A stretch of 64,000 nt of DNA from a virus. Under the pieces are notes generated by a model. The model had not been told where the DNA came from. It saw nothing but the letters and a program-made list of their open reading frames with translations, and made no database searches. Positions 1,745 through 64,000 of this stretch are shown piece by piece. Position numbers and translations under genes: made by a program. Positions within the stretch are counted from its first letter, which is position 1. Each line of letters opens with the position of its first letter. The stretch lies in IMG/VR virus record IMGVR_UViG_3300025652_000002; one strand, written 5' to 3'.

Positions 1745-1770
1745 GGTTGCCCTTCGGGGTGGCCTTTTTT
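1745..1770. terminator. rho-independent terminator-like hairpin + T6
   Basis: ggttgcccttcggggtggcc followed by tttttt directly after the HNH gene. Confidence 0.45.
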
Positions 1771-1805
1771 AACATTTTGGGACTAAAAAAAGTGAGAAAA
1801 ACAGG

Positions 1806-1821
1806 GCATCTATAATAGAAA
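1806..1821 (+). promoter_or_regulatory. candidate early promoter motif GCATCTATAATAGAAA (contains TATAAT)
   Basis: Exact 16-nt repeat also at 2731-2746, both immediately upstream of early genes. Confidence 0.3.
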
Positions 1822-1839
1822 CCTAAACAGGATAAAAAG

Positions 1840-2079
1840 ATGTCTAAAGAAGAATTTGGAACCGTACTTGAGCTAGAACTACGTCTTGGTGATGTCGTAA
1901 AACTTATTGAGCCTATCGAGGAGAACATGAGACTTAAAGGTCACATCTACTCAGTTGCGTTTAATAATAAGCTCTATGACACCACCCCTGATAAACTTTG
2001 CCAGTACTATGGCTACACAACTGACACTGACCCTGATGTATTTGAGGTCCTCTACCACATCCCCCAAACAGAAAGCTGA
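1840..2079 (+). CDS. hypothetical protein
   Basis: ATG start with upstream A/G-rich RBS. + strand. Tight spacing. Confidence 0.5.
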   Translation: MSKEEFGTVLELELRLGDVVKLIEPIEENMRLKGHIYSVAFNNKLYDTTPDKLCQYYGYTTDTDPDVFEVLYHIPQTES

Positions 2080-2083
2080 ACAA

Positions 2084-2380
2084 ATGAGCTATGATATCTC
2101 AATCGGTAACATGAACCGGAACTACACAAGCAACGTTGTACCCCTGTGGGACGCTGCTATGCCTGAACTTAACTTGCGCGACATGCACAACATGATCGCC
2201 AGTGAGTGTGAGAACCATCTCCTTAACGGTATCCTCTCTATGGCGCAGAATCGTCACATGTATGAAAGCCTCGTTCGAGGGGAAGGTTGGGGAGACTATG
2301 CTGGCGCTCTGTCAGTCTTGGTCGAACTGTACTGTAACTGCGTGGACTGCCCTGATGACCACGTACGCGTCCACTGCTAA
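2084..2380 (+). CDS. hypothetical protein (Cys-containing)
   Basis: Internal ATG 2084 chosen because the longer ORF from 1955 overlaps the previous gene. Confidence 0.4.
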   Translation: MSYDISIGNMNRNYTSNVVPLWDAAMPELNLRDMHNMIASECENHLLNGILSMAQNRHMYESLVRGEGWGDYAGALSVLVELYCNCVDCPDDHVRVHC

Positions 2381-2390
2381 GGAAAAGAAA

Positions 2391-2720
2391 ATGGAATACT
2401 TCTCCTACGACCCTATCCAAAAGGGTTACCCACAATACAGTATGATGTTTCACTTCGGGTTCGAGAGAGAGCGGATACTTCGTACTTTCGAAGAATACAA
2501 GGAAGATGTTCTTATCATTCTTCCTGAAGAAGACAAGGATGGAAGCTACTACCAAAGTAGGACTTCTACAGAACTCACCTTTGCTCAAAGGCGTTCTAGC
2601 ATTGTTGCCCTCTCTATGGGTGATGACTTCTTTCTTGTGAAGAACCGCTACAACGGAAAGCTTGGCCACATGGGCCGCGACGAACTAGAAGCTGTAGTAA
2701 AACTCCTCAGAGGAAACTGA
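2391..2720 (+). CDS. hypothetical protein
   Basis: ATG at 2391 preceded by aaggaaaag. Longer ORF from 2202 overlaps the upstream gene. Confidence 0.45.
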   Translation: MEYFSYDPIQKGYPQYSMMFHFGFERERILRTFEEYKEDVLIILPEEDKDGSYYQSRTSTELTFAQRRSSIVALSMGDDFFLVKNRYNGKLGHMGRDELEAVVKLLRGN

Positions 2721-2730
2721 GAAAGCTAGC

Positions 2731-2746
2731 GCATCTATAATAGAAA
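2731..2746 (+). promoter_or_regulatory. second copy of GCATCTATAATAGAAA motif
   Basis: Identical to 1806-1821. Lies 30 nt upstream of gene 2777. Confidence 0.3.
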
Positions 2747-2776
2747 AACCAACCCAACCCTAACCGGAGAACTACA

Positions 2777-3256
2777 ATGATTGACTTTATCAAAACAAAA
2801 ACACTCGGCGTTGCTAAGGTAGTACTTGGCACTTTTGTTATGCTTCTGAGCATTGCGTCCTTCGGGACTGCTGCTTACAAGTACGGAGAAGTTGTTTCCT
2901 ACAACAAAACTTCGCTGGACTATGAGGAACTCATCGGAGAACAACAGCGCCGCAACTACGCGCAACTTGTTGCTATGGGTACTCAGTACCTTGCCTTAGT
3001 CGAAGAAGCGCGTGAAGAGGCGCGTCAGGAGTACCTTGCTCTAATCGAAGAAGCGCGTGAAGATACTAGCTCTGATGCTGTTATCAACTGGGAAGCAGTC
3101 GCTACCAAGTGGGAAAACACTACTACGAAAGTAGCAGATACTTCCTCACAAGCTTGGGGTGCAACAACAACGGCGACTAGCAACGCTTGGAATACAACCT
3201 CCTCTAAGACTCTTGAACTTTTTAACCAAGGCCGTAACTGGGTCTTAGCTGACTAA
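2777..3256 (+). CDS. membrane-anchored protein with internal repeat (LALVEEAREEARQEY / LALIEEARED)
   Basis: N-terminal hydrophobic helix. Tandem heptad-like repeat. Confidence 0.5.
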   Translation: MIDFIKTKTLGVAKVVLGTFVMLLSIASFGTAAYKYGEVVSYNKTSLDYEELIGEQQRRNYAQLVAMGTQYLALVEEAREEARQEYLALIEEAREDTSSDAVINWEAVATKWENTTTKVADTSSQAWGATTTATSNAWNTTSSKTLELFNQGRNWVLAD

Positions 3257-3269
3257 AGGAACTACTACT

Positions 3270-3581
3270 ATGATTACCTACATACTTCTGGAAGGAGTGG
3301 AGGGAGTCCTAATCAGACTCTTCTTTGCAATGATTACTGCAATGATCGTCCCTGCACCAAAAGGTGGTAAGGGCAAGAAGTCAACCCCTGTCTTCTTCAC
3401 ACTGCCCGGATTTATGGGGCCGATCGCGGTGGTTTACTACATGCTGTTCCCTGCTTTGGGTGCAGTCTCCTTAGCTTTTGCTATAGGTTTCTTTCTACCA
3501 GAGAACTTCAAGTTCTTTGTCCAAGTACTTAACTACTTCAACCCGCCTCCTGAAGAGGCCAAAAACAAAAAGAAAGGGTAA
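3270..3581 (+). CDS. small integral membrane protein
   Basis: Two or three hydrophobic helices. Lys-rich C-terminus. Confidence 0.5.
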   Translation: MITYILLEGVEGVLIRLFFAMITAMIVPAPKGGKGKKSTPVFFTLPGFMGPIAVVYYMLFPALGAVSLAFAIGFFLPENFKFFVQVLNYFNPPPEEAKNKKKG

Positions 3582-3738
3582 AAACCCTCATGATGACAAT
3601 TTTCTTAATCTGGAACGCCTACTACATTGTTGATTCTTTCAGCAAGAACCAGTAAGAAGTTTGTTGATAGTCAACCAGAGGCCGGAGTACTCTGTACAAA
3701 GTCCGGCACAATGACAACAACCCAACAAAGGACAAGTA

Positions 3739-4065
3739 ATGTTCAAGTTTTACCGTGGGACCACCTTCCCAGAAGCCATAGCTCTCGGTGAAGGGTGCCA
3801 ACACCATAACGATATATTTTGGTGTGACAGCTTTGAAGTGGCAGTCTATCTAAGTCAAGGGGCAGTCGCAGAGATCATCCTTGATGAACTACCACCCCAC
3901 TTCAATGACTACCAGAGCCTTGTAAAAATAAAGGGATACCCTGAACAACGTCCTTATAGGATTTGGGGCATCTCCTCCGACTACTACGAAAAAGATAAGG
4001 GTTTATATAACCACATCGAAGATTTCAAAATCCACTACGAAGGATCTGACTATGAAAAGTCTTGA
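3739..4065 (+). CDS. hypothetical protein
   Basis: ORF with ATG. 150-bp upstream gap holding hairpin gccggagtactctgtacaaagtccggc. Confidence 0.5.
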   Translation: MFKFYRGTTFPEAIALGEGCQHHNDIFWCDSFEVAVYLSQGAVAEIILDELPPHFNDYQSLVKIKGYPEQRPYRIWGISSDYYEKDKGLYNHIEDFKIHYEGSDYEKS

Positions 4066-4474
4066 GATTTTCAGGATAGAAAACCCTGAAACAAACGAGG
4101 GTATGTACTCTACAGCTTACATGGAACTACCTTTTTGGTTCCACGAGCAGACCCACTGCCCCGGCCCTCACAGGGAACAAGAAGAGCCAAAGCTAAGTAA
4201 GTTTTGGGAATACCTAGAACACCACGGAGAATCTTGGGATTGGTACTTTGGCTTTAGAACCCTAAAACAAGCCGCCAAGTGGATTTCTCCTGATCGTTGG
4301 CACATACCTGAAGAAAAGTGGTTCAAGAAAGCTAACCGGAAAGTGGTTGTCTCTAAGTACGCTGTAGACTGCGAAGACAACATTTTTCACGGTAACTCCC
4401 AGTCTATCTTTGTGCGTGAGCGGGCCGGAATAGTTGATACTACCCCTTTAATCAAACTACAAGACCTCATTTAG
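4052..4474 (+). CDS. hypothetical protein
   Basis: ATG start. Overlaps the upstream stop. Confidence 0.5.
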   Translation: MKSLEIFRIENPETNEGMYSTAYMELPFWFHEQTHCPGPHREQEEPKLSKFWEYLEHHGESWDWYFGFRTLKQAAKWISPDRWHIPEEKWFKKANRKVVVSKYAVDCEDNIFHGNSQSIFVRERAGIVDTTPLIKLQDLI

Positions 4475-4485
4475 GGAAACATAAC

Positions 4486-4815
4486 ATGTCTTTGAAACAC
4501 ACTGAGTACGAAACCTTTGACATTTGTAACATTAGAACTGTAAGGGAGTTCAAAAACTTCGTTGAAAACGTCTACAAAGAAGCCCAGCAGAAGGGTTGGA
4601 CAGACCTCAAGTGGGGGTTTACTACAACTACAGACTATGACGATTACTCTGAAGCTGCTATAGAGTTCTACGGAAGCCGCCCCAAAACCCCGGAAGAAGA
4701 AAAAGCAAGTATTAGAGAGGGGGCTGTTAGAAAGGTTGCTAGAGAAAAAGGCATCAGCTACCACGAAGCTTCTACCCTCTATAACCTCCGTGAACGTAAA
4801 AAGATTGACTTCTAA
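4486..4815 (+). CDS. hypothetical protein
   Basis: ATG start. Confidence 0.5.
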   Translation: MSLKHTEYETFDICNIRTVREFKNFVENVYKEAQQKGWTDLKWGFTTTTDYDDYSEAAIEFYGSRPKTPEEEKASIREGAVRKVAREKGISYHEASTLYNLRERKKIDF

Positions 4816-4832
4816 ACAAACTGGAGAACACA

Positions 4833-5507
4833 ATGGCTAACTTCCCGAACTACGTTGTAACAGAAAAAACTTGCTTTGTAGATGCAGACGCTTCTAAGAA
4901 GCTATCTTTCTTGGAGTCTATTGATTTCATGTACCATCTGAAAGAGGAAGGACACGGAGATAAAGTTTTTGTTGAGCTTGCAGCTTTTAACCATACCTTT
5001 ACCCTGACAAACCTAAAGAGTCTTCTTTTGCAAGGGAAAGTAGAGCTACTCCGCGCCTCCCTTGATAAGCACGGAGTCCCTATCCCAGCAGAGACAGAAG
5101 CAAATCTTAGTGCGGTTGGGGACCTTCTGACCTTCATCGAGTCCACTCGCTTTGCGAAGGTTTCGGATAAGTATAAGCTTGATGATCAAACTGAAGAGTT
5201 TAACCCAAAGGATAAGTTCCGTATCGGTACAAAAGATATCGCTATGGGTTATAGTCGCTCTGCTCATCACGTTGTTGAGCGGTTGTGGAAGAACGTCTCA
5301 CAGTCTTGGTTTGATACAGACAATGGCTTCAAGGGGCAGGCCAGCTTCAGTCAAAACATCGCTGGCCAAAACCACAACGTTTCAGTACAAAAGAACATGA
5401 TCCGTGTTGGTTGTAAGGACGTCCGTCGCTACGAACTAGAAGCCCTTGCCCTGAATATGGGTTGGAGCTTCCCTAACCAACTCTCCGAAGAATCTAAAAA
5501 CAAATAA
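4833..5507 (+). CDS. hypothetical protein
   Basis: 224-aa ORF, ATG start. Confidence 0.5.
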   Translation: MANFPNYVVTEKTCFVDADASKKLSFLESIDFMYHLKEEGHGDKVFVELAAFNHTFTLTNLKSLLLQGKVELLRASLDKHGVPIPAETEANLSAVGDLLTFIESTRFAKVSDKYKLDDQTEEFNPKDKFRIGTKDIAMGYSRSAHHVVERLWKNVSQSWFDTDNGFKGQASFSQNIAGQNHNVSVQKNMIRVGCKDVRRYELEALALNMGWSFPNQLSEESKNK

Positions 5508-5518
5508 GGAAAACTAAC

Positions 5519-5914
5519 ATGACCTCACTACTTTGTTTGGCTACGGCCATCTTTTTCGAAGCACGTAACGAACCCATTGATGCACAGTACTTTGTTGCAG
5601 AAGTGGTTATAAACCGTGTACAAGATGAACGCTACCCTGACACTGTGTGTGAGGTTGTGTTCGAGGATAAACAGTTCAGCTTTACCCACGATGGTAAGTC
5701 TGATGATATGGCTGAGTACGACACCTACTTTGATAGGGAGGCTCAACACATGTCTAAGCTAATTGCTGGGGATGTTATCAATGCTAACAGCACCTCTATC
5801 ACCTCAACCCACTACCACACTGCAAGCATTGATCCTTTTTGGAACGATGTCTACACCCTTGATGGTCAGTACGGCTATCACATTTTTTACACCAACGAAA
5901 CCCCTTGGAGGTAA
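5519..5914 (+). CDS. SleB/CwlJ-type cell wall hydrolase
   Basis: FFEARNEP...VAEVVINRV...YPDTVCEVV...QFSF matches the Hydrolase_2 (SleB) signature. Confidence 0.75.
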   Translation: MTSLLCLATAIFFEARNEPIDAQYFVAEVVINRVQDERYPDTVCEVVFEDKQFSFTHDGKSDDMAEYDTYFDREAQHMSKLIAGDVINANSTSITSTHYHTASIDPFWNDVYTLDGQYGYHIFYTNETPWR

Positions 5915-5916
5915 CT

Positions 5917-6282
5917 ATGAACCATCAAGAAGCCTTTGATAAAGCTGTGGCCCACCTTCGCAAACAAGGTGCTAAAGCTCACGATTCTTCACGCAGGACC
6001 GATGACGGTAGTCTGTTCTGTGCTTACCGTGGAGACAACGGTATGATGTGCGCAGTTGGTTGCCTCATTACCGATGAAGAATACACCAAATCTTTTGAGG
6101 GGAGGGCTGCCAGCTGGCTCCAAGAGAGACTCCCCGCTGGGAATAGCTTGGTGTTTTTGGACGGTCATTTCCTTGAAGGCCTCCAATCAATCCATGATAA
6201 CTCCCCTCCGGAGCAGTGGGAAGATCAACTTAAAAACCTCGCAATAGACTACAAACTAAAATACAATGGAGTAGAAGCATGA
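5917..6282 (+). CDS. hypothetical protein
   Basis: The listed ORF start at 5905 is TTG. ATG at 5917 follows ggaggtaact. Confidence 0.5.
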   Translation: MNHQEAFDKAVAHLRKQGAKAHDSSRRTDDGSLFCAYRGDNGMMCAVGCLITDEEYTKSFEGRAASWLQERLPAGNSLVFLDGHFLEGLQSIHDNSPPEQWEDQLKNLAIDYKLKYNGVEA

Positions 6283-6560
6283 AAATTACACGCACATCAA
6301 TGGTCTCAGGCAATACCAACACCTTGGACCTCGATATAACAATGGAACAACTCCGAGACTACGAAGCGGGGACGTTGCTTCAGGACGCCTTCCCAGACCT
6401 TGATGCGGATGACCGTGAGTTTCTCAAAACAGGGATCACTCCTGATGAGTGGGACAACATGTTCAAGTCAGAGGAAGTCGATGAGGACGATCTGTTGGGA
6501 GAAGAACTTCTCTCAGATGAAGACCTAGCTGTACTCTTAGAAGGGGTAAACGTACTATGA
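6279..6560 (+). CDS. acidic hypothetical protein
   Basis: ATGA overlap with the upstream gene. Confidence 0.5.
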   Translation: MKITRTSMVSGNTNTLDLDITMEQLRDYEAGTLLQDAFPDLDADDREFLKTGITPDEWDNMFKSEEVDEDDLLGEELLSDEDLAVLLEGVNVL

Positions 6561-6865
6561 CAACCGAGATCAGAAACAGCCGCTCAGACCACCTTCACAT
6601 CGAGTTTTCCAACGGGTTCACTCTCTCTGCTACTTGGCGGGAGGGTTCCTACACTAGGTTAAACGAGGTGGAACTTGGTTTGTGGGGTGAAGGACACCCT
6701 TGGGTTGTCCTCTCTGAGCACGATGACGTTGCTGGGTATGTTCCTATGCAACAGTGTTTAGAGATCGCCTACAAGCTTGGAGAACTTGCACCAACTTCTG
6801 GTGTAGATGAAGTTCGCCAAGTACTGAAAGAAACCCTTTGGAAAGGAACAGACTTTGAAGGTTAA
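6557..6865 (+). CDS. hypothetical protein
   Basis: ATGA overlap. Confidence 0.5.
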   Translation: MTTEIRNSRSDHLHIEFSNGFTLSATWREGSYTRLNEVELGLWGEGHPWVVLSEHDDVAGYVPMQQCLEIAYKLGELAPTSGVDEVRQVLKETLWKGTDFEG

Positions 6866-7163
6866 AGTAAACTTCCCTAACGGGACCTACATTATTGTTG
6901 ATCGCAGTATTGTAGGTAAGTTCTTCGAAAATGCAAACATTTCAACAGAGGACCTACCTGAAGACTTCGACCTTTCCGCGCCTGAAATCCGGCGTCATAA
7001 CAACGCCTTTAGCTCCTTGGTTGGGGCTATTGACGCAAAGTGGGGTTACTCTTACGAGCCTCTAAAAGCCAAACCTCAGCCTTACATGGCTGGGGACCTA
7101 CGACAGTACATGGATAACCTCATTGAACAGGAGTATGAGAATGACTATGACTACAATAACTGA
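6855..7163 (+). CDS. hypothetical protein (probable TTG start)
   Basis: No in-frame ATG near the 5' end. TTG at 6855 follows aaagga. Confidence 0.35.
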   Translation: MKVKVNFPNGTYIIVDRSIVGKFFENANISTEDLPEDFDLSAPEIRRHNNAFSSLVGAIDAKWGYSYEPLKAKPQPYMAGDLRQYMDNLIEQEYENDYDYNN

Positions 7164-7539
7164 GATCCTTGCCCGTTGCGTTGAACTTGAAGCGACTATG
7201 TCCGAAAAGGGTTTCACAGTTCCAGAGGTTGGGATTCACCTCCGAACTCACGGGCGCATTACAGTGGCCCTAGATTGTAGCTGCACAAGCCCTATTAAGT
7301 TTGATGGCGATCGTTCTTATGCGTTTGCTTATGGAGATACTATCGAAGAAGCTTTTGAAAAGGCCGAACTGTGTATCGAAGATATTGTAGATGTAGAAAC
7401 CCAAAACAAAAAGAGCTACACCAAGAAACTGGCAGACGCTATTGACTTTGGTATGGAAGTCGGAATTGAACGGGCCTTCATTGAACCAGTACGAGAAACA
7501 AAGAACTTGGTCCTTGAGACCCTTATCACAAAGCAGTAG
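7141..7539 (+). CDS. hypothetical protein
   Basis: The listed start at 7123 is TTG. ATG at 7141 sits 8 nt after aggag. Confidence 0.45.
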   Translation: MTMTTITEILARCVELEATMSEKGFTVPEVGIHLRTHGRITVALDCSCTSPIKFDGDRSYAFAYGDTIEEAFEKAELCIEDIVDVETQNKKSYTKKLADAIDFGMEVGIERAFIEPVRETKNLVLETLITKQ

Positions 7540-7547
7540 GAGAAACT

Positions 7548-8222
7548 ATGCTAGAAGTCAAACATGTAAACGAGGCTAAGACCCTTTTCGACCTCCAACC
7601 AGAAGTAGGCAGCTACGTCGATTGTTGGAACAACTCTCATAAAGGCACACTGTTCCTTATCCAAGATAACTGGAAGTCGTGGGGTGGTGTGGGCTGCCCT
7701 TGGTGGGTTCCTCATGGTACAGAGGTAACCCCTGTTAAAAAGCCTGTTCGGGAGGCAAAGTACAAGGACCCAGCAAAGACACGGTACATCCCAACAAACA
7801 AAGTTCTTCAAATGGAGCCTGTTCGGGAGGTGGAGCGTCACACTAAACGGCGAGGTTACACTCGTTTCTCAGAAAGCTTCCGCCGAAAGGTTTGTAAGAC
7901 AGCTATTATCCTTGGGGATATGAAAGAAGCCTCTGATCGTCATAAGGTTTGTCAAACTTCTGTCTGGAACTGGCTTAAAACCTACGGCTATGCTAATGAC
8001 TTTGTGCAGACTAAGTACAAGAAGCGCGGTCTAGAGGTAACAAGCACCCCTTATGATGTTCCAGCAAACAAAGGTTATCCTGATCAGATGCGTCTAGCAG
8101 CCGCCATGTATGCAGTTGATTACAGCCCTCAAGCAGCTGCTAATCGCTATGGTGTCTCTTTGAGTTCAGTGTACTACTGGATTCATAACTACAACTTGTC
8201 TCGTGCTTACGCGAACAAGTAA
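7548..8222 (+). CDS. putative DNA-binding protein with two transposase-like HTH motifs
   Basis: DRHKVCQTSVWNWLKTYG and NRYGVSLSSVYYWIHNY resemble IS630/Tc1-type HTH. Immediately upstream of the RNAP gene. Confidence 0.4.
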   Translation: MLEVKHVNEAKTLFDLQPEVGSYVDCWNNSHKGTLFLIQDNWKSWGGVGCPWWVPHGTEVTPVKKPVREAKYKDPAKTRYIPTNKVLQMEPVREVERHTKRRGYTRFSESFRRKVCKTAIILGDMKEASDRHKVCQTSVWNWLKTYGYANDFVQTKYKKRGLEVTSTPYDVPANKGYPDQMRLAAAMYAVDYSPQAAANRYGVSLSSVYYWIHNYNLSRAYANK

Positions 8223-8232
8223 ATAACCCTTG

Positions 8233-8280
8233 CCTCGCCCCTTCGGGGGCGGGGTTTCTCCTTAACCTTTTTTTTTTTTC
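8233..8280. terminator. rho-independent terminator
   Basis: cctcgcccc-ttcg-ggggcgggg hairpin followed by T12. Confidence 0.6.
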
Positions 8281-8296
8281 TTTTAGAAGGAGTAAG

Positions 8297-10489
8297 ATGA
8301 AAACAGCACTAGAACTGTTATGCGAAGACTTTGAATTTCGCCAACGATACCTGTTAGACAAAACGGGACAAAACGTGGACAAGCGCAAGAAATCTTGGAA
8401 GCTTTATGGTAAGGACGGTAAGGAAGCCATTGAGGCAACCTACGGACACATCCTTACCGCGTTAGAGAGTAACACCTCTCTGTCGGCCCTGACAGTAAAA
8501 ATGGGTGGAGTGATTAGTCGTCGTTTCAACTTGGACAGCGATGAGGTTGAGATGTCTCACCTCGGATGGTTCACCCTTGTCTCTTACTTTGAGATGGGCT
8601 ACCTTAAATACAAAGCAAAACACATAAAGAAGAGGAACGGAAAGAAGACAAAGTACCCAACCTACCACATCTATGTAACTAACACTGACGCAATTAACTC
8701 TCTCTTAGAGTCAGTAAATAGGGACAAAGTGGAACTATTTCCCTCGGCGGGACCTGTAGGTGATTGGGAAGAAGGGTTTCTTCACCCTATAACTAAGTAT
8801 CCTCTGATCAAGAACGCTTCAGAGGATACTATCCAAAAGGTAAAAAACCTTGAGTTGACCTACATTAAGGACACTCTCAACAAACTAAACAACACAGGCT
8901 GGCGTATTAACCAACCAGTATTCGAAGTGTTCAAGGCCAGTATGCACTGGGAAAAGACGCCTTTTAAGTTTTCAAGAGAGATCGATCCGGTAAAGAAAAC
9001 CTCTTTGCTAATTGAGATAAACGCTATCAAGGGGATAGCAGAAAGGCATAAAAATAACACATTCTACCACCTATACAACTTGGACTTTCGAGGAAGAATC
9101 TACCCTAACACAGCTTTCCTTCACGAGCAGTCCTCTGATAATGCCAAGGGCTTGCTTCTGCTTGAGGACTCCGTGCCGCTTGGAGAAGAAGGATACTACT
9201 GGCTCTGTGTCCACGCAGCCAACGTCTGGGGAAACGATAAAGTAGACCTAGATGATCGTGTAAAGTGGGTTCAGGACAACATAGACGATATACTACGCTG
9301 GGGTGCTCTTCCACAAGAGTTCCGTGGCTGGATGGAGGCTGATAAGCCTTTCTCTTTCCTTGCTGCCTGTGTTGAGATCAACATGTTGGATAGTTGGGTA
9401 CAGTCAGGTAACAACCCTCACGACTTCCCAAGCAACCTACCTGTTTACATTGACGGGTCAAACAATGGTGTTCAACACCTTGTTGCTATGTCTAAGGATG
9501 AGACTATTGCACCTTTGGTCAACCTAACTCCCTCAAAACTACCGGGAGATGTCTATCTTTACATTGCTGAAGCCGCCATGGCTAAAGTCAATGAAATGGT
9601 AAAAGCTTTAGACGAGGACGAGGTTGACAAGTTTGAGGGTCTTTTCTCTAAGTACGTTAGTCTTTTAAGGGTAATAGAAGCTGCCCCAGACAACTCTGAG
9701 AAGAAGGCTTTAGCTTGGAAGGCTATGCTTGAGTACAAGAACCACAACCACACCTTAAGGGAGAAGCTTTTTCCCGTCTACTGGTCCAAGATCAAAGACA
9801 AAAAGGTTTGGCGTAAAATGCTCAAGAGAAACGTCATGACCCTCGGTTACGGGGGTACACGTCAAGGTATGGGTGAACAAGTTGTAGAAGACACTCGTGG
9901 GATGAGTGACTACCTTAGAGACAAGGAACCCAAGTGGGGCTACATGCTTGGTAGTATGGTCTTTGACCTCTGCTATGAAAAGCTTGAGGGTCCCGCAAGG
10001 ATGCTCCAAATGTTTCAAGAGCTAGCTGTTAGGGAGAATGACCTTAATAGGCACCTGACTTACACCCTCCCTATAACTGGGTTCCCTTTCCAACACAACT
10101 ACAGGAAACCCAAAAGCAGAGATGTAAGCTTCTACTACGGGGAAGAGCGTATCCGTTTGACACTAAGTATCTGGCAGGAGGCCACCTTAGACAAACAGAA
10201 GCAGAAGACAGGTACAGCACCAAACATTGTACACAGCTTTGATGCTGTTCACCTAGCGAGTGTCGTCCATGATGCTCTCTACGTAATCACAGTTGTCCAT
10301 GATTCTTTTGGGTGCCATGCGGGTAACATGGGACAACTTTTCTACCACGTTAGAGAGAAGTTTATCGATCTTTACGAGTTGGAACCTTTAGAATATGTAA
10401 TGGCACAGTTAGATGCCTTAGACCTTATACCAGAGAAAGGGACATTGGATGTCACAAGAGTTCGATCTTCAGAGTTTTCATTCGCTTGA
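8297..10489 (+). CDS. T7-like single-subunit DNA-dependent RNA polymerase
   Basis: 730 aa. Motif C VVHDSFGC. Ends FSFA like T7 RNAP (FAFA). Overall T7 RNAP-like sequence. Confidence 0.9.
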   Translation: MKTALELLCEDFEFRQRYLLDKTGQNVDKRKKSWKLYGKDGKEAIEATYGHILTALESNTSLSALTVKMGGVISRRFNLDSDEVEMSHLGWFTLVSYFEMGYLKYKAKHIKKRNGKKTKYPTYHIYVTNTDAINSLLESVNRDKVELFPSAGPVGDWEEGFLHPITKYPLIKNASEDTIQKVKNLELTYIKDTLNKLNNTGWRINQPVFEVFKASMHWEKTPFKFSREIDPVKKTSLLIEINAIKGIAERHKNNTFYHLYNLDFRGRIYPNTAFLHEQSSDNAKGLLLLEDSVPLGEEGYYWLCVHAANVWGNDKVDLDDRVKWVQDNIDDILRWGALPQEFRGWMEADKPFSFLAACVEINMLDSWVQSGNNPHDFPSNLPVYIDGSNNGVQHLVAMSKDETIAPLVNLTPSKLPGDVYLYIAEAAMAKVNEMVKALDEDEVDKFEGLFSKYVSLLRVIEAAPDNSEKKALAWKAMLEYKNHNHTLREKLFPVYWSKIKDKKVWRKMLKRNVMTLGYGGTRQGMGEQVVEDTRGMSDYLRDKEPKWGYMLGSMVFDLCYEKLEGPARMLQMFQELAVRENDLNRHLTYTLPITGFPFQHNYRKPKSRDVSFYYGEERIRLTLSIWQEATLDKQKQKTGTAPNIVHSFDAVHLASVVHDALYVITVVHDSFGCHAGNMGQLFYHVREKFIDLYELEPLEYVMAQLDALDLIPEKGTLDVTRVRSSEFSFA

Positions 10490-10712
10490 GGAAGATGACG
10501 TGTTAATCTTAGACCCGATCGGGCTAGGAAACTCCGGTGGAGAATTCCTTGTCCACGAGAAATACCAAGGGCTGAACTTAGGGTCTGTAATCACAGGCTA
10601 TTTTTACCCCTTTGAAACAGGAAACCAGTACAAAAGTACAAGCTATTATGGAGAGATTATGGAAGAAGATTGGTACAAGATCAAAGAAGTAGTCCACAAG
10701 GTAGGAGCATAA
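10449..10712 (+). CDS. hypothetical protein
   Basis: ATG start. 41-nt overlap with the RNAP 3' end. Confidence 0.4.
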   Translation: MSQEFDLQSFHSLEEDDVLILDPIGLGNSGGEFLVHEKYQGLNLGSVITGYFYPFETGNQYKSTSYYGEIMEEDWYKIKEVVHKVGA

Positions 10713-10931
10713 ATGCAGGCTCAAACTACGGATGAACTAATCAAATACATGAACGAGGTAAATCGGCCTGTGCTTGTAATCTCAAAACCAGATTACGACG
10801 CAGAGCCAGAATTTCTTAGCGTTGAGTCCTTCGACGCAGAAGAAGAAGCATTTCAAGTACTTAACCCCGCTACAGGAGAGTGGGGTGAGTGGTATGTAAA
10901 TGATAAGTATCTCTATGATATCATTGTGTAA
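10713..10931 (+). CDS. hypothetical protein
   Basis: ATG immediately after the upstream stop. Confidence 0.45.
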   Translation: MQAQTTDELIKYMNEVNRPVLVISKPDYDAEPEFLSVESFDAEEEAFQVLNPATGEWGEWYVNDKYLYDIIV

Positions 10932-10954
10932 AAAATACTGCCGCCTAATGACCA
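10931..10954 (+). promoter_or_regulatory. candidate phage-RNAP promoter AAAAATACTGCCGCCTAATGACCA
   Basis: One of four intergenic copies of a conserved ~24-nt motif. Upstream of the SSB gene. Confidence 0.5.
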
Positions 10955-11014
10955 AGGCCAGTTGCCGACGCGGTCAAACAACAACAAAAATGAAAACAAA
11001 AGGAAAGCAAATTT

Positions 11015-11680
11015 ATGGCTGTAATTGAAAACGTAGAACTGTGGTGGGTAAAGTGTGATCCAGAGGATCCAGTAAAGAACGATGATGATGACAAACCAGA
11101 CTACTGGGAAGTCCAAGTTCGTACCACTGACAAAGAAAAGGCTCTACACTGGAAGAAGAATAATGTTCGTTTCAAACCTCTGAAGCGTATTGTTCGTGAT
11201 GACAAGGGCGAAAAAGTCCTAGATGAAATGAATGAGCCAGTTCGAGAGAACGTTCTAGATGAGGATACAGGTCTGCCTTACTTCGCAGTCACTCTTCGTC
11301 GCAAAGTCACAAAGGCTAACGGTAAGGAAATGCCCCCTGTTAGTGTTCGTGGTGGTATGGATACTCTTGATCCTAACATTATCGGTAACAAAACTATCGG
11401 TAACGTAAGTATCTTTCAGTACGACTACGTTTATAAGGGCGAGGAAGGTATTGCTACAATGCTAAAGGGCATTCAGGCAGTAAAACTCGTCAAGTTCGAG
11501 AAGACAGGTGGTGACGATGAGTTTAAACCTGTTGAAATGGAAATCGTTGGGGGTGGTAATATTGATGATATCAATGAGACTCCTTCTGCAAAGACCCCTG
11601 TTAAAGGGAAGTCTAAAGCGAAAGCTAAAGAAGAAGACTTCGACGATGACAATATGGACGACGAAATCCCTTTTAACTAA
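11015..11680 (+). CDS. putative ssDNA-binding protein (T7 gp2.5-like)
   Basis: 221 aa. Acidic C-terminal tail EEDFDDDNMDDEIPFN with an aromatic near the end. Positioned between RNAP and DNAP. Confidence 0.45.
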   Translation: MAVIENVELWWVKCDPEDPVKNDDDDKPDYWEVQVRTTDKEKALHWKKNNVRFKPLKRIVRDDKGEKVLDEMNEPVRENVLDEDTGLPYFAVTLRRKVTKANGKEMPPVSVRGGMDTLDPNIIGNKTIGNVSIFQYDYVYKGEEGIATMLKGIQAVKLVKFEKTGGDDEFKPVEMEIVGGGNIDDINETPSAKTPVKGKSKAKAKEEDFDDDNMDDEIPFN

Positions 11681-11692
11681 GGGAACTTGTCC

Positions 11693-11815
11693 ATGAGCAC
11701 CATTGAAAAATGGCGGCAGGTTCCTGATCTACCTATAAAAGCTTCGTCTTGGGGTAGAATCTGGAAAGAACCAAAAGAAGGCGTACCTCTCCCAAACGGA
11801 GGGGTGCGTCAGTAA
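11693..11815 (+). pseudogene. possible remnant of an HNH homing endonuclease (NUMOD4-like N-terminus only)
   Basis: MSTIEKWRQVPDLPIKASSWGRIWK resembles the NUMOD4 motif. The frame stops after 40 codons, with a similar coding-like frame continuing downstream. Confidence 0.3.
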
Positions 11816-11891
11816 ACCACCCAGACTTTATTGAATACTGTAAAAGTCGAACTGGGGAGTATAGCCCTTACCGAAAAGGGAAAGCACTAAT

Positions 11892-11920
11892 GGAGAACCT
11901 GTAATGGGTTCTCCTTTTTT
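11892..11920. terminator. rho-independent terminator
   Basis: ggagaacc-tgtaatg-ggttctcc followed by tttttt. Confidence 0.6.
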
Positions 11921-11942
11921 ATCATTTTAGGAATGAACAAGA

Positions 11943-12536
11943 ATGTATAAGAACGACTTACCAAAAATCAAGAAGTTTGTGCTCGAAGAAGGCATCAGCG
12001 GTATGGACCGTGTTTTCTACTTTATGTTGGGTTCTATCCGCGTAAAGTTTTTGACCCTCCCTTCAGTAACAGACTCGATCGTTAAAGAAGGTGCCCTCTC
12101 GCGCCATATTTGGGGCAACAAGGCTACGGCCTACAAAGACTACAACCGCTTAGACAAGATCAAGCTGTTTGAAGACGTGTTTGACCCAGCAAAGAGCACC
12201 ATAGATCTATCTCGTGAGCTAACGGATATCAGGGGCATCGGAGTCACCAAGTCGTCGTTCTTTCTGCAACTCTTGGGCAGAGACACTGCTTGCTTAGACG
12301 TACATAACCTCAAGAAGTTAGGGTTCCACCACAAGAAGTTTGCCAAGAAAGATATTGAGACCGCCAAGCAATACCACAAGACTGTAAACGAAAAGGGTGC
12401 AGCTTTCTGGTGGGATAGCTGGTGTGGAACAATCTTTGACGGTTATTCTGAATACTTCGAAAGCCCCGAACAGATTTCTAACCTCCACCTTGAAATCATT
12501 TCAGGTCAGGTTACTGACAACTTTAAGAAAGTATAA
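11943..12536 (+). CDS. hypothetical protein with HhH-GPD-like (DNA glycosylase superfamily) motif
   Basis: LTDIRGIGVTKSSFFLQLLGRDTACLDVHNLKKLG resembles the helix-hairpin-helix + VDTHV element. Confidence 0.35.
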   Translation: MYKNDLPKIKKFVLEEGISGMDRVFYFMLGSIRVKFLTLPSVTDSIVKEGALSRHIWGNKATAYKDYNRLDKIKLFEDVFDPAKSTIDLSRELTDIRGIGVTKSSFFLQLLGRDTACLDVHNLKKLGFHHKKFAKKDIETAKQYHKTVNEKGAAFWWDSWCGTIFDGYSEYFESPEQISNLHLEIISGQVTDNFKKV

Positions 12537-12541
12537 GTACA

Positions 12542-13431: not shown

Positions 13432-13434
13432 ACT

Positions 13435-14618: not shown

Positions 14619-14619
14619 G

Positions 14620-35640: not shown

Positions 35641-35718
35641 CCCCTCCCTCACCCCTCCCTTGATGCCCTAGCGGGTGTCTTGGTTGGGGTGAGGGAGGGG
35701 TAACCTTTTTTTTTTTTT
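35641..35718. terminator. strong rho-independent terminator
   Basis: 15-bp perfect inverted repeat cccctccctcacccc / ggggtgagggagggg followed by T13. Confidence 0.7.
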
Positions 35719-35760: not shown

Positions 35761-35784
35761 AAAAATACTGCCGACTAATGAAGA
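35761..35784 (+). promoter_or_regulatory. candidate phage-RNAP promoter AAAAATACTGCCGACTAATGAAGA (late-type variant)
   Basis: Third copy of the conserved motif. Shares the downstream CTAATGAAGAAGGGGG with the copy at 58050. Confidence 0.5.
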
Positions 35785-58049: not shown

Positions 58050-58079
58050 AAAAATACTGCCGCCTAATGAAGAAGGGGG
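58050..58079 (+). promoter_or_regulatory. candidate phage-RNAP promoter AAAAATACTGCCGCCTAATGAAGAAGGGGG (late-type variant)
   Basis: Fourth copy of the motif. Upstream of the portal gene. Confidence 0.5.
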
Positions 58080-60238: not shown

Positions 60239-63200
60239 ATGAACGCTAATGATAAACTGTTTGATCGTATTGTTGACAATATGACAGACGTAAGACTCTA
60301 TGAAAATGGAGTGCAAGTTGAGAACGGGCGGATACTAAACCGTCACAGAAAGCGCCTTAGGTCGTTACTTTCTCAGAACATCAAAGCTGATGTGAAACCA
60401 GAGATTACTCGCTTTGGTAAGGAACTCCTTACTAACACTGAACGTAGTGTTCGAGAGTTTTCCACCTCACAGTTAGACTTTCATTCTGACAACCTTCATA
60501 AAGAAGTTACACGCTTCTATAGGGTTCAACGACCAAGGACTAAAGAACTCCTTGCAGAAATTACAGGACCTAGCATCAAAGGCCCTTCAACCCTCTCTCG
60601 GAACTTATCAAACATTTCTTCCGGAGAACTCGTAAGAATTCAAACAAAGGTCAGTCTCGGACTAGCTGAAGGTCTTTCTCAACAAAAGATCATCAACAAC
60701 GTCTTGAAGACTACCCGTCTAACAGAAATTCAGGCTAAGACCCTGACACGTACTTCTATTACCTCTACCCAGACAGCAGCCTTAAACAAGGTCATGGAGA
60801 ACAACGCCGACATTCTCGATGGTTACATGTTCACTGCTATTCTCGACTCAAGAACTAGTGCAATCTGTAGCTTCCACAACGGTAAAGTCTACAAGATTGA
60901 CGACATGTCCTATCGGCCTCCGCTGCACTGGAACTGTCGTTCTTCTATGGTTCCTGTCCTTAAGTCTAAGGAACAGTTAGCTGAAACGGAGTCGGCTCGT
61001 CTTAAAAGGAAAGAGGTAGCTAAGCTTGACGAAGGTCTTTTCAACGGAAAGCCCGCTCAAATCATGAACTTTGGGAACTGGCTACGACGTCAGACCTCAG
61101 ACATCCAAGAGAAACTCCTTGGCAGTGAAGACGCTGTTTCAATGTTTCGACAAGGAAAGCTTAAAGCAGAAGAATTCATTTCTCCTGTTGGCAAGGCCCT
61201 GAGTATTCAGGCACTCCGCCGCAGAGCCGCAGCTGCCACCGCTGTATTCCACCCTCGTCAGAGAAACGTGGTGTCTTCTATTGACATTCCTGCCCAAAGA
61301 CCTTCTACCCTTATTAATAACCCTGCCCATAAAGCGAGTTTACGCAACCTCTTTATTGATGATGCTGATAACTTCACTTCGACCTATGCCTTGACAGACT
61401 TCAAAGGTACGTCCTTGGTGGGTAAACAGGCCTCTCGTAGACGCGTGGGCAATCAGTTTGATGAACGTAACTTCTCCTCCGATCCTTTGACCGGAGAGAT
61501 TAGGAACAACAATCTTTATGACCCCGATTTTAACCTGTACCAAGAGCGTATTGACTTTATGCGTAACTCAAAGGACCTTACACCAGATCAAAAGAACTTC
61601 ATTGAAAGCACCGTAGCTGCTCTTGACGACAAGGTTTCTGTTAATCAACAAACAGTTGCAATAGAAAACTTGAGAGTCGTCTTCCAACGGTATAACAATA
61701 ACAAGGAGCCTTGGGGTGACTTTTCTGCTGTAGTCCGTGCTGAGAACAGGTTTGCTGTTCAGAACGTATCACGTCTACTTGACACCCGTTCACGAGAACG
61801 CTCCAAAATGTTTGTCAGCTACCTTTCTAAGGACACCCCACAGGTGCAAATCTTAGGTAAGTACTACAACCTTGAGGACCTTACAAAGGGCCAACTTGCT
61901 GACCAACGCTTCATTGACGCTTGGCGGCGTACACAAGGTGCTAGTCTTGCAAGAGGTGTCTACTTCAAAGGACGTGCTCCTCTGAGAACCTACTTTAACC
62001 GCTTCCTTACAACGGAAAAGCAGATAAAGAAGTTCAAGGAGGACCTCTTAAACAAGATCATTCCTTTACGGAAAGAGTACCTTGCTTTCAAGAAACTCTT
62101 TAATCGAGACCCTACAGACCGTTGGTGGACTAAACAGTTTGCCAAGCTAAGAGAGGCTCAACGTAAGATTCTGGACTATGAGTTCCTACAGTTTGATAAG
62201 AAGCCTACTTCCAAGATCATGGATGAAGAAGCCCTTAACTCCCTTACAAAGATTTTCAAGTTAGTCGCTTCAGGCCAATCAACAGACTATGATAGTCTCG
62301 CTATCGGTATTGGTAAGAAACTAGCAGAGGATATTGGTGACCTAGTTCCGGGTATGACACATACTTTAAAGGACTACCACGCTGAAGGTTCTAAAATCCT
62401 AGAGTACATGCGTGAGCAAGGAATGATCCGTATCAACTTCCGTGGTAAGACCCGTCGAGGTGTCTATGATGTGGACACAGGCCGCGCTTCAGGTGGTTGG
62501 GGTGATACTGTGAGCCGTGAGGTTCAGGTGATAGACAAGACCCTTTTGAAGCTACAGGAAGCAGAACGTAGGACTGTCATTGCTCGTCGTTTAGGCGTTG
62601 TCAGTGAGCGCGATCGTCTTTATGTCAAGGCAGGTAAGAAAACCTTCTTTGATGCTAGGGGTAATGACAGTGGAATCCCTATTATTTCTTCCAGCAAGTT
62701 TGCTGACTATGACCCTAAGCAAATTGACCGCGAAATGGCTCAGATGATGAACCACGTAATGGATGTTGAGTACTCTGTTGATAACGAGTTCTTTGACTTC
62801 ATGGATGACCTTGTTAGGTTCCGAGACCCTCGTGGTAACTCTAAGTACTATGACAGTATCAATGAGTTTCGGCATGAGATTCTACAACGTGGAGAGCAAG
62901 GTTACGGTATGATGGCTACGGCTAAGTACCATAGACAGCGCAGTGCTAACTTCCGTACACAGGTCTTTATTGACTCCCGTGGTCGGGTTTATCACCGTGG
63001 CTACCTTACTCCTACAGGCGGTGAGCTAGTGCGTCCCTTCCTCAACTCTGGAAGAGCCGTGGCTATGAACGCTAAGGCTTACCGTGAACTACGTATTCAG
63101 ATTGGTGCCCTTATTGGCTCAGGTACAGAGATTCTTTCTCAGGCTGGGCGGATTGACACCTTTAATCGTAAGCGTAAACAGTTACTTGAACTTGGTGGTC

Positions 63201-64000
63201 TGCTTCAAGCAAAGACCCAAAGAGACAGACGCATCCGTGAGTTTCTTGAACACCCTTTAGTGAGAGAACTCGAAGGTGCTGAAGTAGCAAAGCTTGCTCG
63301 TATGGCTTTAGAATTGAAACGCCTAGATGATTTCATGGGTGGAGACTACTCTGACCTTGCTAAACTCGCAGGGTTTAAGACTCGCCTAATGATTGAGAAT
63401 GACGCTTCCTCTAGTGGTGCTCAAATTATCGCCCTGTCTACAGGGGACCGCGCTATTGCTAACGTTTCTAACGTCCTTGCTACACGCCAAAAGAACAGAC
63501 TCTATGACCTCGTTGCTCAGGACACTATCAACGACCCTGAGTTTCTAAAGATTGCTGCTCTTCGTAACTCCGGCCTCGATTGGGAAGACCTTGCTAAGGC
63601 TGCTAAAGCCCAGAACATGGTTACCTTCTATGGTGCTGGTGAAGCAACCAAGACAGCAAACGTGGCTAACAAACTATCCAAGCTTCTTGACGAGAAGGGT
63701 TTCCTTACAATCACTAAGGCTACACTTAACGACAACACTCGCTTAATTGACAACCAAATCAAACTTGCTACGCGCTTAGGCGCTACAAGAACAGTAGATG
63801 ACTTGACTGCGTTCCGTAAGGAACTCATTGAGTTAGTAAACAATAGTGCCCCCGTAGGTAGACACCTACTAACGGAGGCTATGGACATTCACCCAGACGT
63901 AGGTGACTTTGTACAGAGTATGATGAACGCAAGACGTGGAATTGTAGGACCAAAAGACTTCGAGGCTGTGTCTCGTATTATGTCTTCTAACCTAGCTCAA
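60239..64000 (+). CDS. giant virion protein: N-terminal Mu-F/SPP1 gp7 head-morphogenesis domain fused to a T7/N4-like single-subunit RNA polymerase domain (3' end outside window)
   Basis: MuF motif ILDSRTSAICSFHNGKVYKIDDMSYRPPLHWNCRSS. ssRNAP signatures: FIDSRGRVYHRGYLTPTGGELVRPFL (T7 DWRGRVYAVSMFNPQG), motif A MIENDASSSGAQIIALS (T7 FDGSCSGIQHFSA), motif B QNMVTFYGAGEATK (T7 RSVMTLAYGSKE). No stop before the window end. Confidence 0.65.
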   Translation, partial: MNANDKLFDRIVDNMTDVRLYENGVQVENGRILNRHRKRLRSLLSQNIKADVKPEITRFGKELLTNTERSVREFSTSQLDFHSDNLHKEVTRFYRVQRPRTKELLAEITGPSIKGPSTLSRNLSNISSGELVRIQTKVSLGLAEGLSQQKIINNVLKTTRLTEIQAKTLTRTSITSTQTAALNKVMENNADILDGYMFTAILDSRTSAICSFHNGKVYKIDDMSYRPPLHWNCRSSMVPVLKSKEQLAETESARLKRKEVAKLDEGLFNGKPAQIMNFGNWLRRQTSDIQEKLLGSEDAVSMFRQGKLKAEEFISPVGKALSIQALRRRAAAATAVFHPRQRNVVSSIDIPAQRPSTLINNPAHKASLRNLFIDDADNFTSTYALTDFKGTSLVGKQASRRRVGNQFDERNFSSDPLTGEIRNNNLYDPDFNLYQERIDFMRNSKDLTPDQKNFIESTVAALDDKVSVNQQTVAIENLRVVFQRYNNNKEPWGDFSAVVRAENRFAVQNVSRLLDTRSRERSKMFVSYLSKDTPQVQILGKYYNLEDLTKGQLADQRFIDAWRRTQGASLARGVYFKGRAPLRTYFNRFLTTEKQIKKFKEDLLNKIIPLRKEYLAFKKLFNRDPTDRWWTKQFAKLREAQRKILDYEFLQFDKKPTSKIMDEEALNSLTKIFKLVASGQSTDYDSLAIGIGKKLAEDIGDLVPGMTHTLKDYHAEGSKILEYMREQGMIRINFRGKTRRGVYDVDTGRASGGWGDTVSREVQVIDKTLLKLQEAERRTVIARRLGVVSERDRLYVKAGKKTFFDARGNDSGIPIISSSKFADYDPKQIDREMAQMMNHVMDVEYSVDNEFFDFMDDLVRFRDPRGNSKYYDSINEFRHEILQRGEQGYGMMATAKYHRQRSANFRTQVFIDSRGRVYHRGYLTPTGGELVRPFLNSGRAVAMNAKAYRELRIQIGALIGSGTEILSQAGRIDTFNRKRKQLLELGGLLQAKTQRDRRIREFLEHPLVRELEGAEVAKLARMALELKRLDDFMGGDYSDLAKLAGFKTRLMIENDASSSGAQIIALSTGDRAIANVSNVLATRQKNRLYDLVAQDTINDPEFLKIAALRNSGLDWEDLAKAAKAQNMVTFYGAGEATKTANVANKLSKLLDEKGFLTITKATLNDNTRLIDNQIKLATRLGATRTVDDLTAFRKELIELVNNSAPVGRHLLTEAMDIHPDVGDFVQSMMNARRGIVGPKDFEAVSRIMSSNLAQ

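Follow-up and report, generated by a model that had tools for sequence, protein, structure and literature searches.

Two T7-type RNA polymerases, one free and one fused to a minor capsid protein, suggest a two-stage transcription programme in a Naomviridae-like phage

Introduction

The virus record IMGVR_UViG_3300025652_000002 is represented here by a stretch of 64,000 nucleotides (nt), hereafter the window, which at 8297-10489 encodes a T7-like single-subunit RNA polymerase (RNAP) of 730 amino acids (aa). We find that the same phage encodes a second polymerase of T7 type, fused to a minor capsid protein, and that its genome carries two classes of candidate promoter. We judge it fairly probable that the capsid-delivered polymerase transcribes the early genes and the 730-aa enzyme the middle and late genes, and host RNAP is probably dispensable for transcription of the entire genome. 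A broader proposal seems to us to have slightly better than an even chance: that a widespread lineage of aquatic siphoviruses, comprising the Naomviridae and their relatives (over 500 IMG/VR stretches), is fully independent of host RNAP, using a MuF-tethered, injected T7-type polymerase with a duplex promoter of ~35 nt (AAAAAGTGAGAAAA-N5-GCATCTATAAT) before handing over to a paralogous free enzyme of diversified specificity.

Judged by its genes, the uncultured virus is a siphovirus-like tailed phage related to the roseophage DSS3_VP1. The nearest isolates are DSS3_VP1 and DSS3_PM1 (Naomviridae, Noahvirus; siphovirus morphology), and 24 of the 103 open reading frames (ORFs) of the window have a DSS3_VP1 homologue at E<1e-5, with 28-70% identity and in colinear order. 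Metagenomic relatives are referred to below by locus number (L004 and so on).

A free polymerase close to T7 RNAP

8297..10489, plus strand: T7-like single-subunit RNA polymerase gene (non-virion enzyme); ATG start, 730 codons, one uninterrupted ORF
10100..10189, plus strand: codons of the specificity beta-hairpin (residues 602-631, YRKPKSRDVSFYYGEERIRLTLSIWQEATL), aligned to T7 739-770

This ORF, with a GGAG Shine-Dalgarno sequence 7 nt 5' of its ATG, almost certainly encodes a functional T7-like polymerase. Its product matches Pfam RNA_pol (PF00940) with 251.6 bits (cut-off 22; E=1.9e-74), PHROG 414 'RNA polymerase' at E=3.5e-124 and the T7 RNAP chains in the PDB at E=9e-57. In the last of these alignments residues 253-730 correspond to T7 411-883, so that the deficit of ~153 aa relative to T7 RNAP (883 aa) is N-terminal. 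All the polymerase motifs align to those of T7: T/DxxGR (DFRGRIY, R267), A (YIDGSNNGVQH, D386), B (KRNVMTLGYGG, K510 and Y518) and C (VVHDSFG, H668 and D669). These six residues are invariant in an alignment of 40 homologues, as is F729 in the C-terminus ...SEFSFA, which aligns to T7 ...SDFAFA. An AlphaFold2 (AF2) model built on the homologue alignment (pLDDT 90.1, pTM 0.87) contains both a T7-like N-terminal domain and the specificity beta-hairpin, with strands at 605-614 and 617-626. In Foldseek its best whole-chain match is the T7 RNAP-promoter complex 1cez_A (TMq 0.78, E=1e-28); mitochondrial RNAPs rank second and the N4 enzymes fall outside the top 50. The protein has more than 480 homologues in metagenomes, mostly of 717-795 aa.

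An earlier reading made from the letters alone (the sequence-only reading) had described a conventional T7-like RNAP of 730 aa with motif C VVHDSFGC and a C-terminal FSFA, about 150 aa shorter than T7 RNAP mostly at the N-terminus, and encoded directly after a terminator at 8233-8280. These points hold: VVHDSFGC occupies residues 666-673, family, PDB and fold matches all agree on T7, and a hairpin (8232-8255) followed by a run of T (8268-8279) does precede the gene. That reading had also proposed an alignment with T7 RNAP and N4 RNAPII. Against the T7 match given above, BLASTP to N4 gp15 and gp16 gave only E=0.13 and 2e-8; the PDB sequence search returned no match to N4 RNAPII (6dt7) at E<0.01, and PHROG families of N4-like RNAPII were secondary matches only. 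The break between N4 gp15 and gp16 falls between residues equivalent to ~290 and ~300, after the T/DxxGR motif. From sequence and modelled fold, the 730-aa polymerase is closer to T7 RNAP than to N4 RNAPII and is not a fused N4 RNAPII.

In several lineages a small ORF of 65-114 aa, without family match, overlaps the polymerase 3' end by 32-41 nt in another frame (window 10449-10712; DSS3_VP1 44594-44938; L033 12138-12335; L034 12297-12554), which suggests translational coupling of a partner protein.

A second polymerase in a minor capsid protein

60239..64000, plus strand: MuF/SPP1-gp7 capsid protein-RNA polymerase fusion gene (presumed virion enzyme); runs off the window

The complete gene was read from locus L029, which shows 0 mismatches to the window across 15,821 overlapping bases; it has 1458 codons and ends at window-equivalent 64615. 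Residues 134-240 form a MuF domain (Phage_Mu_F PF04233, 54.7 bits, cut-off 29.6, E=2e-14; TIGR01641, 62.8 bits, cut-off 39.65). The protein matches PHROG 414 at E=1.3e-22, and its C-terminal match to Pfam RNA_pol is narrow (22.5 bits, cut-off 22; 27.1 for the DSS3_VP1 counterpart). A PDB sequence search gave no significant match and a fold search was needed: with an AF2 model of residues 821-1458 (pLDDT 85.8, pTM 0.81), Foldseek aligned the C-terminal ~640 aa to T7 RNAP at E=1.6e-14 and to T7 and mitochondrial RNAPs at E=1e-14, probability 1.00. The motifs IDSRGRVY, ENDASSSGAQ, KAQNMVTFYGAG and TIHDAFF are invariant in 30 homologues, and so are the catalytic residues D912/R914/R916, D1055, K1123/Y1131 and H1372/D1373. 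An hhalign alignment of the two polymerase families is colinear over all motifs, yet has E=0.11 and low probability, and we used it for residue correspondence only. The sequence-only reading had placed an RNAP domain in a giant virion protein; the domain is real, whereas 'giant' does not fit a protein of 1458 aa, which is not of N4 size.

Over 200 protein clusters (1450-1600 aa) conserve the fusion, their names going no further than 'head morphogenesis' or 'minor capsid protein', and it recurs in over 530 IMG/VR stretches. A search of 50,697 phage records found it only in DSS3_VP1, DSS3_PM1 and EBPR siphovirus 1. In the last of these (JF412302.1, 28078-31141) the homologue matches in three pieces with an annotated HNH endonuclease gene between them, which suggests an intron or intein-like interruption.

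The portal gene (DUF4055, 58180-59751) lies directly upstream of a tRNA cluster and the fusion gene. This position, 3' of the portal gene, the tRNA cluster and the fourth of the conserved 21-mers described below, marks the fusion gene as a late gene, and a place in a late operon behind such a motif is as expected for a virion protein. MuF is a head-borne carrier of enzymes delivered with phage DNA, and single-subunit polymerases are not named among its fusions, as far as the available part of the source extends (PMC5512222). We presume that the fusion protein is packaged in the virion and ejected into the host.

The tRNA cluster at 59897-60204 comprises four genes (Asn-GTT, Pro-TGG, Thr-TGT, Trp-CCA), so that a listed ORF at 59878-60249 is spurious; DSS3_VP1 has one tRNA-Asn at the equivalent place.

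A candidate T7-like promoter motif that varies with the free polymerase

The 21-mer AAAAATACTGCCGCCTAATGA occurs exactly at 10931, 19871 and 58050 and with one mismatch at 35761, always intergenic and on the plus strand; none was found in 100 shuffles. These are the four conserved promoter motifs to which the sequence-only reading had pointed.

10931..10951, plus strand: class II promoter 1, 442 nt 3' of the polymerase stop codon
19871..19891, plus strand: class II promoter 2, 5' of the genes for 5'-3' exonuclease and primase-helicase
35761..35781, plus strand: class II promoter 3, A in place of C at inferred -6; opens the late structural block
58050..58070, plus strand: class II promoter 4, 5' of the portal gene, tRNA cluster and fusion-polymerase gene

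The 21-mer can be read as AA-AAATA-CTGCCGCC-TAAT-GA, running from -19 to +2 about an inferred start site. The T7 promoter consensus is TAATA-CGACTCAC-TATA-G. The layout here is T7-like: an AT-rich block, an 8-nt block and TAAT, with 17 nt before the purine. Relatives carry the form ATA-N8-TAA(T/A)GA, in which ATA and TAA(T/A)GA are constant and the 8-nt block is specific to the lineage:

CTGCCGCC: window, L013
CTTCCGAC: L032
CTCCCGCC: L004
CCTGACGT: L005, L006, L033
GGGCGGAA: L007
CCCGCAAA: L034
GGGTGCGT: DSS3_VP1 (at least 12 copies, ahead of genes)

Similar ...GC(T/G)TAAAG motifs lie directly 3' of the polymerase gene in L035 and L010; no class II motif was seen in L009. In the window and 11 related lineages (L004, L005, L006, L007, L010, L013, L032, L033, L034, L035 and DSS3_VP1) the first class II copy lies 60-1300 nt 3' of the polymerase stop codon. 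Counted over the related lineages with sequence in that region, 10 of 11 show this placement.

The specificity hairpin (602-631) is the most variable segment of the catalytic half of the 730-aa enzyme (majority frequency 0.57 vs 0.70), and grouping the lineages by this hairpin gives exactly the grouping by promoter core; three independent contigs combine the hairpin RTELKYG..LKVQ.QVW with the core CCTGACGT. We predict that the hairpin reads promoter positions -12 to -5. Taken together, these comparisons make it likely that the 730-aa enzyme uses the 21-mers as promoters, and the T7-like layout of the motif and its co-variation with the hairpin would fit, if indirectly, promoter-specific initiation on duplex DNA that needs no cofactor.

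Behind promoter 1, the first gene (11015-11680, with an acidic C-terminal tail) has no match in Pfam, PHROGs, NCBIfam or the PDB, and is followed by a terminator:

11892..11920, plus strand: hairpin and T6 terminator, after the first gene behind promoter 1

An early element shared across the clade

The sequence-only reading had noted TATAAT-containing repeats at 1806 and 2731. The repeat GCATCTATAATAGAAA is exact at both positions, within a 33-nt repeat that is 85% identical, and belongs to a longer element:

1789..1825, plus strand: early promoter element, copy 1, AAAGTGAGAAAAACAGGGCATCTATAATAGAAA (repeat match; same element in relatives)
2714..2750, plus strand: early promoter element, copy 2, AAACTGAGAAAGCTAGCGCATCTATAATAGAAA (repeat match)

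The consensus, of ~35 nt, is AAAAAGTGAGAAAA-N5-GCATCTATAAT(GATA), and the element also occurs in L004, L006, L008, L032, L033, L035 and DSS3_VP1. Our sample comprised 19 aligned instances from 8 lineages, 8 more from 5 further loci and two variant copies in L034. The aligned copies are all on the plus strand, 3' of the tape-measure/HNH genes and 5' of the polymerase gene. The GCATCTATAAT part is near-invariant though the polymerases of these lineages share only 46-55% identity; variants are GTATCTATAAT in two lineages and CCCTCTATAAT in L034, and CCCTCTATAAT is the form on contig Ga0222645_100059. Aligned on TAATGA, the element falls into the class II frame but has (C)GCATCTA at -12 to -5 and an extra upstream block.

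The sequence-only reading had left the early genes to either the injected enzyme or host RNAP. At 16-18 nt spacing the aligned elements match TTGACA at 0-1 of 6 positions, and they have no TGn; sigma-70-like sites are not enriched in window positions 1-20000 (22 vs 22.1 expected). The lack of a sigma-70 -35 box or TGn and the clade-wide near-invariance favour the injected enzyme over host RNAP, without proving it. The hairpin equivalent of the fusion polymerase (1296-1325) is more conserved than the domain average (0.76 vs 0.72), which matches an invariant early promoter. When hairpins of this enzyme were to be paired with early promoters, the closer relatives all had the same promoter, and the 10-kb flanks of divergent lineages ended inside long tape-measure genes. 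We lean, with some reserve, towards the capsid-borne enzyme and not host RNAP as the reader of the early element. The aligned elements have no conserved inverted repeat and are therefore unlike the hairpin promoters of N4 (PMC4496689). A palindrome in the early element, TCTATAATAGA, was considered as an N4-type hairpin promoter and rejected: it is confined to the window and not conserved in relatives.

In many relatives an inverted repeat stands right after the early TATAAT (e.g. GATACAATAGTATC; L004 6322-6336, L033 7080-7094, L032 5295-5310) and would form a hairpin at the 5' end of the early transcript; both window copies are without it.

The early element stands at the junction of two gene blocks:

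16-1428, plus strand: tape-measure gene, C-terminal end; opens the window
1432-1740, plus strand: HNH endonuclease gene; closes the late operon together with the tape measure
1745..1770, plus strand: canonical hairpin and T6 terminator; ends the late operon (tape measure, HNH), just 5' of the first early promoter
1840..8222, plus strand: early block of ~16 small ORFs; same synteny in L032-L034

Given the tape-measure end, the HNH gene and the terminator at 1745-1770, the early block begins at ~1800. An early block of about 18 small genes, as the sequence-only reading had it, does exist, with ~16 ORFs left once the tape-measure end and HNH gene are assigned to the late operon.

Hairpins with spaced T-runs probably close two operons

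8232..8279, plus strand: GC-rich hairpin with C(UUCG)G loop, 12-nt spacer and T12; 17 nt 5' of the polymerase ATG
35641..35718, plus strand: second hairpin with 15-bp arms, TAACC and T13; 43 nt before class II promoter 3

The first hairpin (GCCTCGCCCC-TTCG-GGGGCGGGGT, 8232-8255) is followed by T12 at 8268-8279. This run and the one at 35706-35718, at the middle/late boundary, are the only runs of at least 8 T in the window. Nine lineages have, just 5' of the polymerase gene, a GC-rich hairpin (its loop usually C(TTCG)G) that is separated by 5-17 nt from a run of T9-14; in DSS3_VP1 the hairpin at this place comes with a shorter T7 run. The equivalents in relatives are:

L004, ~9790-9841
L005, ~10-63
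L006, ~9810-9864
L007, ~890-940
L008, ~6590-6642
L032, ~9925-9978
L033, ~9800-9853
L034, 9881-9891

With its T-run apart from the stem, the element is not a canonical intrinsic terminator; that at 8232-8279 is probably a terminator or attenuator closing the early operon, and the one at 35641-35718 probably terminates the middle operon. Loops of the C(UUCG)G type stabilise RNA. We considered and rejected the element as a hairpin promoter: its loop is of this RNA type and the second copy ends the middle operon.

A proposed programme and its alternatives

We propose that the head carries one polymerase as part of its 1458-aa MuF/SPP1-gp7 minor capsid protein and delivers it to the cell together with the DNA; there this polymerase would start at the early promoters (1806, 2731) and transcribe the small early genes. 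Read-through of the hairpin and T-run at 8232-8279 would then allow expression of the 730-aa polymerase. This enzyme would recognise duplex promoters with AAATA from -17, CTGCCGCC, TAAT to -1 and G at +1 (10931, 19871, 35761, 58050), the hairpin at ~602-631 reading the block from -12 to -5. The copies at 10931 and 19871 would serve the replication genes and those at 35761 and 58050 the structural genes, in long rightward operons; the gene of the capsid-borne polymerase, itself among the structural genes, would be expressed late and its product packaged. The two-stage scheme was already proposed in the sequence-only reading, and both polymerases and the comparative promoter data support it; the assignment of enzymes to motifs, the start sites, the delivery of the fusion protein by packaging and ejection, and independence from host RNAP are what we infer.

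Several points weigh against this proposal. The early element contains a perfect TATAAT that could serve host sigma-70 RNAP. A strong hairpin and T-run stand directly before the polymerase gene in essentially all lineages, which means that the proposal calls for read-through or for a promoter not seen here. For ~60 kb there would be no more than four class II promoters, the link between promoter core and specificity hairpin is confounded by shared descent, and the hhalign statistics between the two polymerases are weak (E=0.11). The searched literature held no transcript 5' end, virion proteome or rifampicin experiment for the clade, and the description of DSS3_VP1 (PMC8323127) includes no virion proteomics and contains neither 'RNA polymerase' nor 'RNAP' in its text.

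T7-like phages use host RNAP for their early genes and the phage enzyme afterwards. The same division could apply here, with host sigma-70 RNAP reading the TATAAT elements, the 730-aa enzyme transcribing everything else and the capsid polymerase domain acting in DNA pulling, replication priming or a late role. The perfect -10 hexamer would fit, as would the unproven packaging of the fusion. Against this stand the early element's want of a -35 and of an extended -10, and the conservation of ~25 further positions of it in phages whose hosts necessarily differ (DSS3_VP1 on Ruegeria, others marine or from lakes). The fusion also has every catalytic residue invariant in 30 homologues, and its gene lies by the portal gene, like other ejected MuF fusions (PMC5512222). 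We find this account rather unlikely, if the most serious competitor to early transcription by the capsid-borne enzyme.

Could the 21-mer and its relatives instead bind a regulator, mark sites of RNA processing, or act as signals for replication or packaging? That the window has only four copies and no mapped start site leaves room for such a role, but one would then have to explain why the motif has the tripartite T7 layout with 17 nt before a purine, why its copies are co-oriented with genes and usually follow a terminator-like hairpin, why the position just 3' of the polymerase gene is kept in 11 lineages, why its variable block coincides with the variable hairpin of the enzyme, and why DSS3_VP1 has at least 12 copies ahead of genes; we think this improbable. 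A programme of N4 type is in our view even less credible, and very improbable. Here the 730-aa protein would be a fused N4 RNAPII, dependent on single-stranded-DNA-binding cofactors and restricted to middle genes, with host RNAP transcribing the late ones. The pairing of virion and non-virion single-subunit polymerases is indeed that of N4, and the secondary PHROG matches to N4-like RNAPII families agree with it. The enzyme is however made as one chain, and its N-terminal domain is T7-like and complete, with the specificity hairpin also present; its BLASTP and PDB searches favour T7 over N4 as given above, and class II promoters 3 and 4 head late genes; the middle promoters of N4 are minimal AT-rich sequences from -7 to +2 (PMC4496689), unlike the 19-nt motif here. 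Transcription by the capsid-borne and then the free polymerase thus remains the account that we prefer.

Genome context and neighbouring genes

The window is part of a metagenomic phage genome of ~72 kb; identical copies of the 730-aa protein are encoded on JGI and ENA contigs of ~72.3 kb, and no near-identical phage DNA was found among 50,697 phage records. Genes run rightward throughout the window, and relatives share the order tape measure, HNH, small genes, polymerase, DNA polymerase. Among 185,579 species genomes the sole polymerase match was L037 (JBIKJV010000357.1), a 13.9-kb contig of a Phycisphaerales metagenome-assembled genome (MAG) from Lake Mendota. It is probably a phage contig mis-binned into a bacterial MAG, and its origin places the clade in fresh water too.

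Within the early block, 5519-5914 encodes a cell-wall hydrolase or endolysin-like protein, an odd place for a lysis enzyme, with homologues (Hydrolase_2) at the equivalent place in DSS3_VP1 and L032-L034. The 224-aa protein of 7548-8222, with a C-terminal HTH_23 domain, is encoded directly before the hairpin and polymerase gene and may be a transcription factor; in L033 and L034 this position is likewise taken by small HTH proteins. Elsewhere the window encodes a nucleoside 2-deoxyribosyltransferase-like protein (14014-14466), a class II (B12-type) ribonucleotide reductase (23658-25526) and an RNA ligase (29984-30904). The adjacent genes 38633-39202 and 39214-39813, which share a 70-nt stretch 80% identical (38708-38777 / 39283-39352), look like a tandem duplication.

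Significance

The searched literature held no description of a MuF-polymerase fusion or of Naomviridae transcription, though one may exist elsewhere. If our reading is correct, the fusion would be a third architecture for carried-in phage polymerases, beside the giant protein of N4 and the tape-measure fusion of P23-45, and the polymerase would ride a head-protein module already known for toxins and other effectors. It would also account for gene expression in Naomviridae-like phages, which are frequent in metagenomes from the sea and from lakes; some of them, at least, have uracil-containing DNA. The small T7-type polymerases (~720-740 aa) with their distinct 17-19-nt promoters form a natural series that could yield orthogonal transcription tools and serve as a test bed for mapping specificity loops to promoter sequences. 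DSS3_VP1 grows on a model bacterium, Ruegeria pomeroyi, so the predictions are directly testable: early 5' ends are expected just after GCATCTATAAT and later ones at ATAGGGTGCGTTAAAG.

Comparison with known systems

The closest comparison is with DSS3_VP1 and DSS3_PM1, whose gp56, annotated 'RNA polymerase' (732 aa), is 46% identical to the free enzyme and whose gp28, a 'minor head protein-like protein' of 1463 aa, is a MuF-polymerase fusion 59% identical to that of the window. The polymerase gene alone is therefore a member of a known family, already annotated as such in DSS3_VP1, whose published description does not discuss the polymerases. DSS3_VP1 shares the colinear gene order, the early element GCATCTATAAT and a class II motif in the same frame, and differs in its class II core (GGGTGCGT vs CTGCCGCC in the window). 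It also encodes Dcd and HD-family Dtm, enzymes of uracil-containing DNA for which no window homologue was found: BLASTP gave no match of window ORFs to DSS3_VP1 47637-48089, and Pfam gave no deaminase or HD domain in the subset of 20 window ORFs scanned.

With T7 the free enzyme shares a single chain, the same fold, motifs T/DxxGR, A, B and C, the specificity hairpin and an FxFA C-terminus; the candidate promoters share the order AT-rich, specificity and TA-rich block, and the first lies just 3' of the polymerase gene. The enzyme is nevertheless ~153 aa shorter, the genome is siphovirus-like with a tape measure, an extra polymerase is fused to the capsid protein and the early promoters are not sigma-70-like. 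Autographiviridae are podoviruses with one RNAP that leave early genes to host RNAP, whereas we find a tape-measure gene, siphovirus relatives and a second polymerase.

N4 (Schitoviridae) offers the nearest parallel in strategy: a packaged polymerase transcribes the early genes and an early-encoded second single-subunit polymerase acts next (PMC4496689). The parts differ, and in these the window system is not N4-like. The N4 virion RNAP has ~3500 aa and reads DNA hairpins, RNAPII is formed by gp15 and gp16 as a heterodimer, has shortened N-terminal and thumb domains, needs gp2 and is without duplex specificity, and late genes are left to host RNAP (PMC4496689); here the virion candidate has 1458 aa and a MuF N-terminus, which the N4 virion RNAP lacks, the second enzyme is one full-length chain and the late genes carry its candidate promoters. 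In Thermus phage P23-45 a tape-measure-fused virion RNAP transcribes the pre-early genes, including the gene of the non-virion RNAP (PMC10770324). P23-45 is likewise a siphovirus delivering a polymerase fused to a virion structural protein, but its enzymes are homologues of the two-barrel RNAPs of cells, and it uses the tape measure as carrier, against T7-type enzymes and a MuF head protein here. AR9/PBS2 and phiKZ also run host-independent two-polymerase programmes, with virion and non-virion multisubunit enzymes in jumbo myoviruses (AR9, as DSS3_VP1, with uracil-containing DNA), and a two-polymerase programme is known in crAss-like phages too. The programme proposed here would thus be a variant of the known strategy of virion and non-virion polymerases, set apart by three differences: the MuF carrier, the compact T7 type of both enzymes, and the apparently T7-type duplex nature of both promoter classes.

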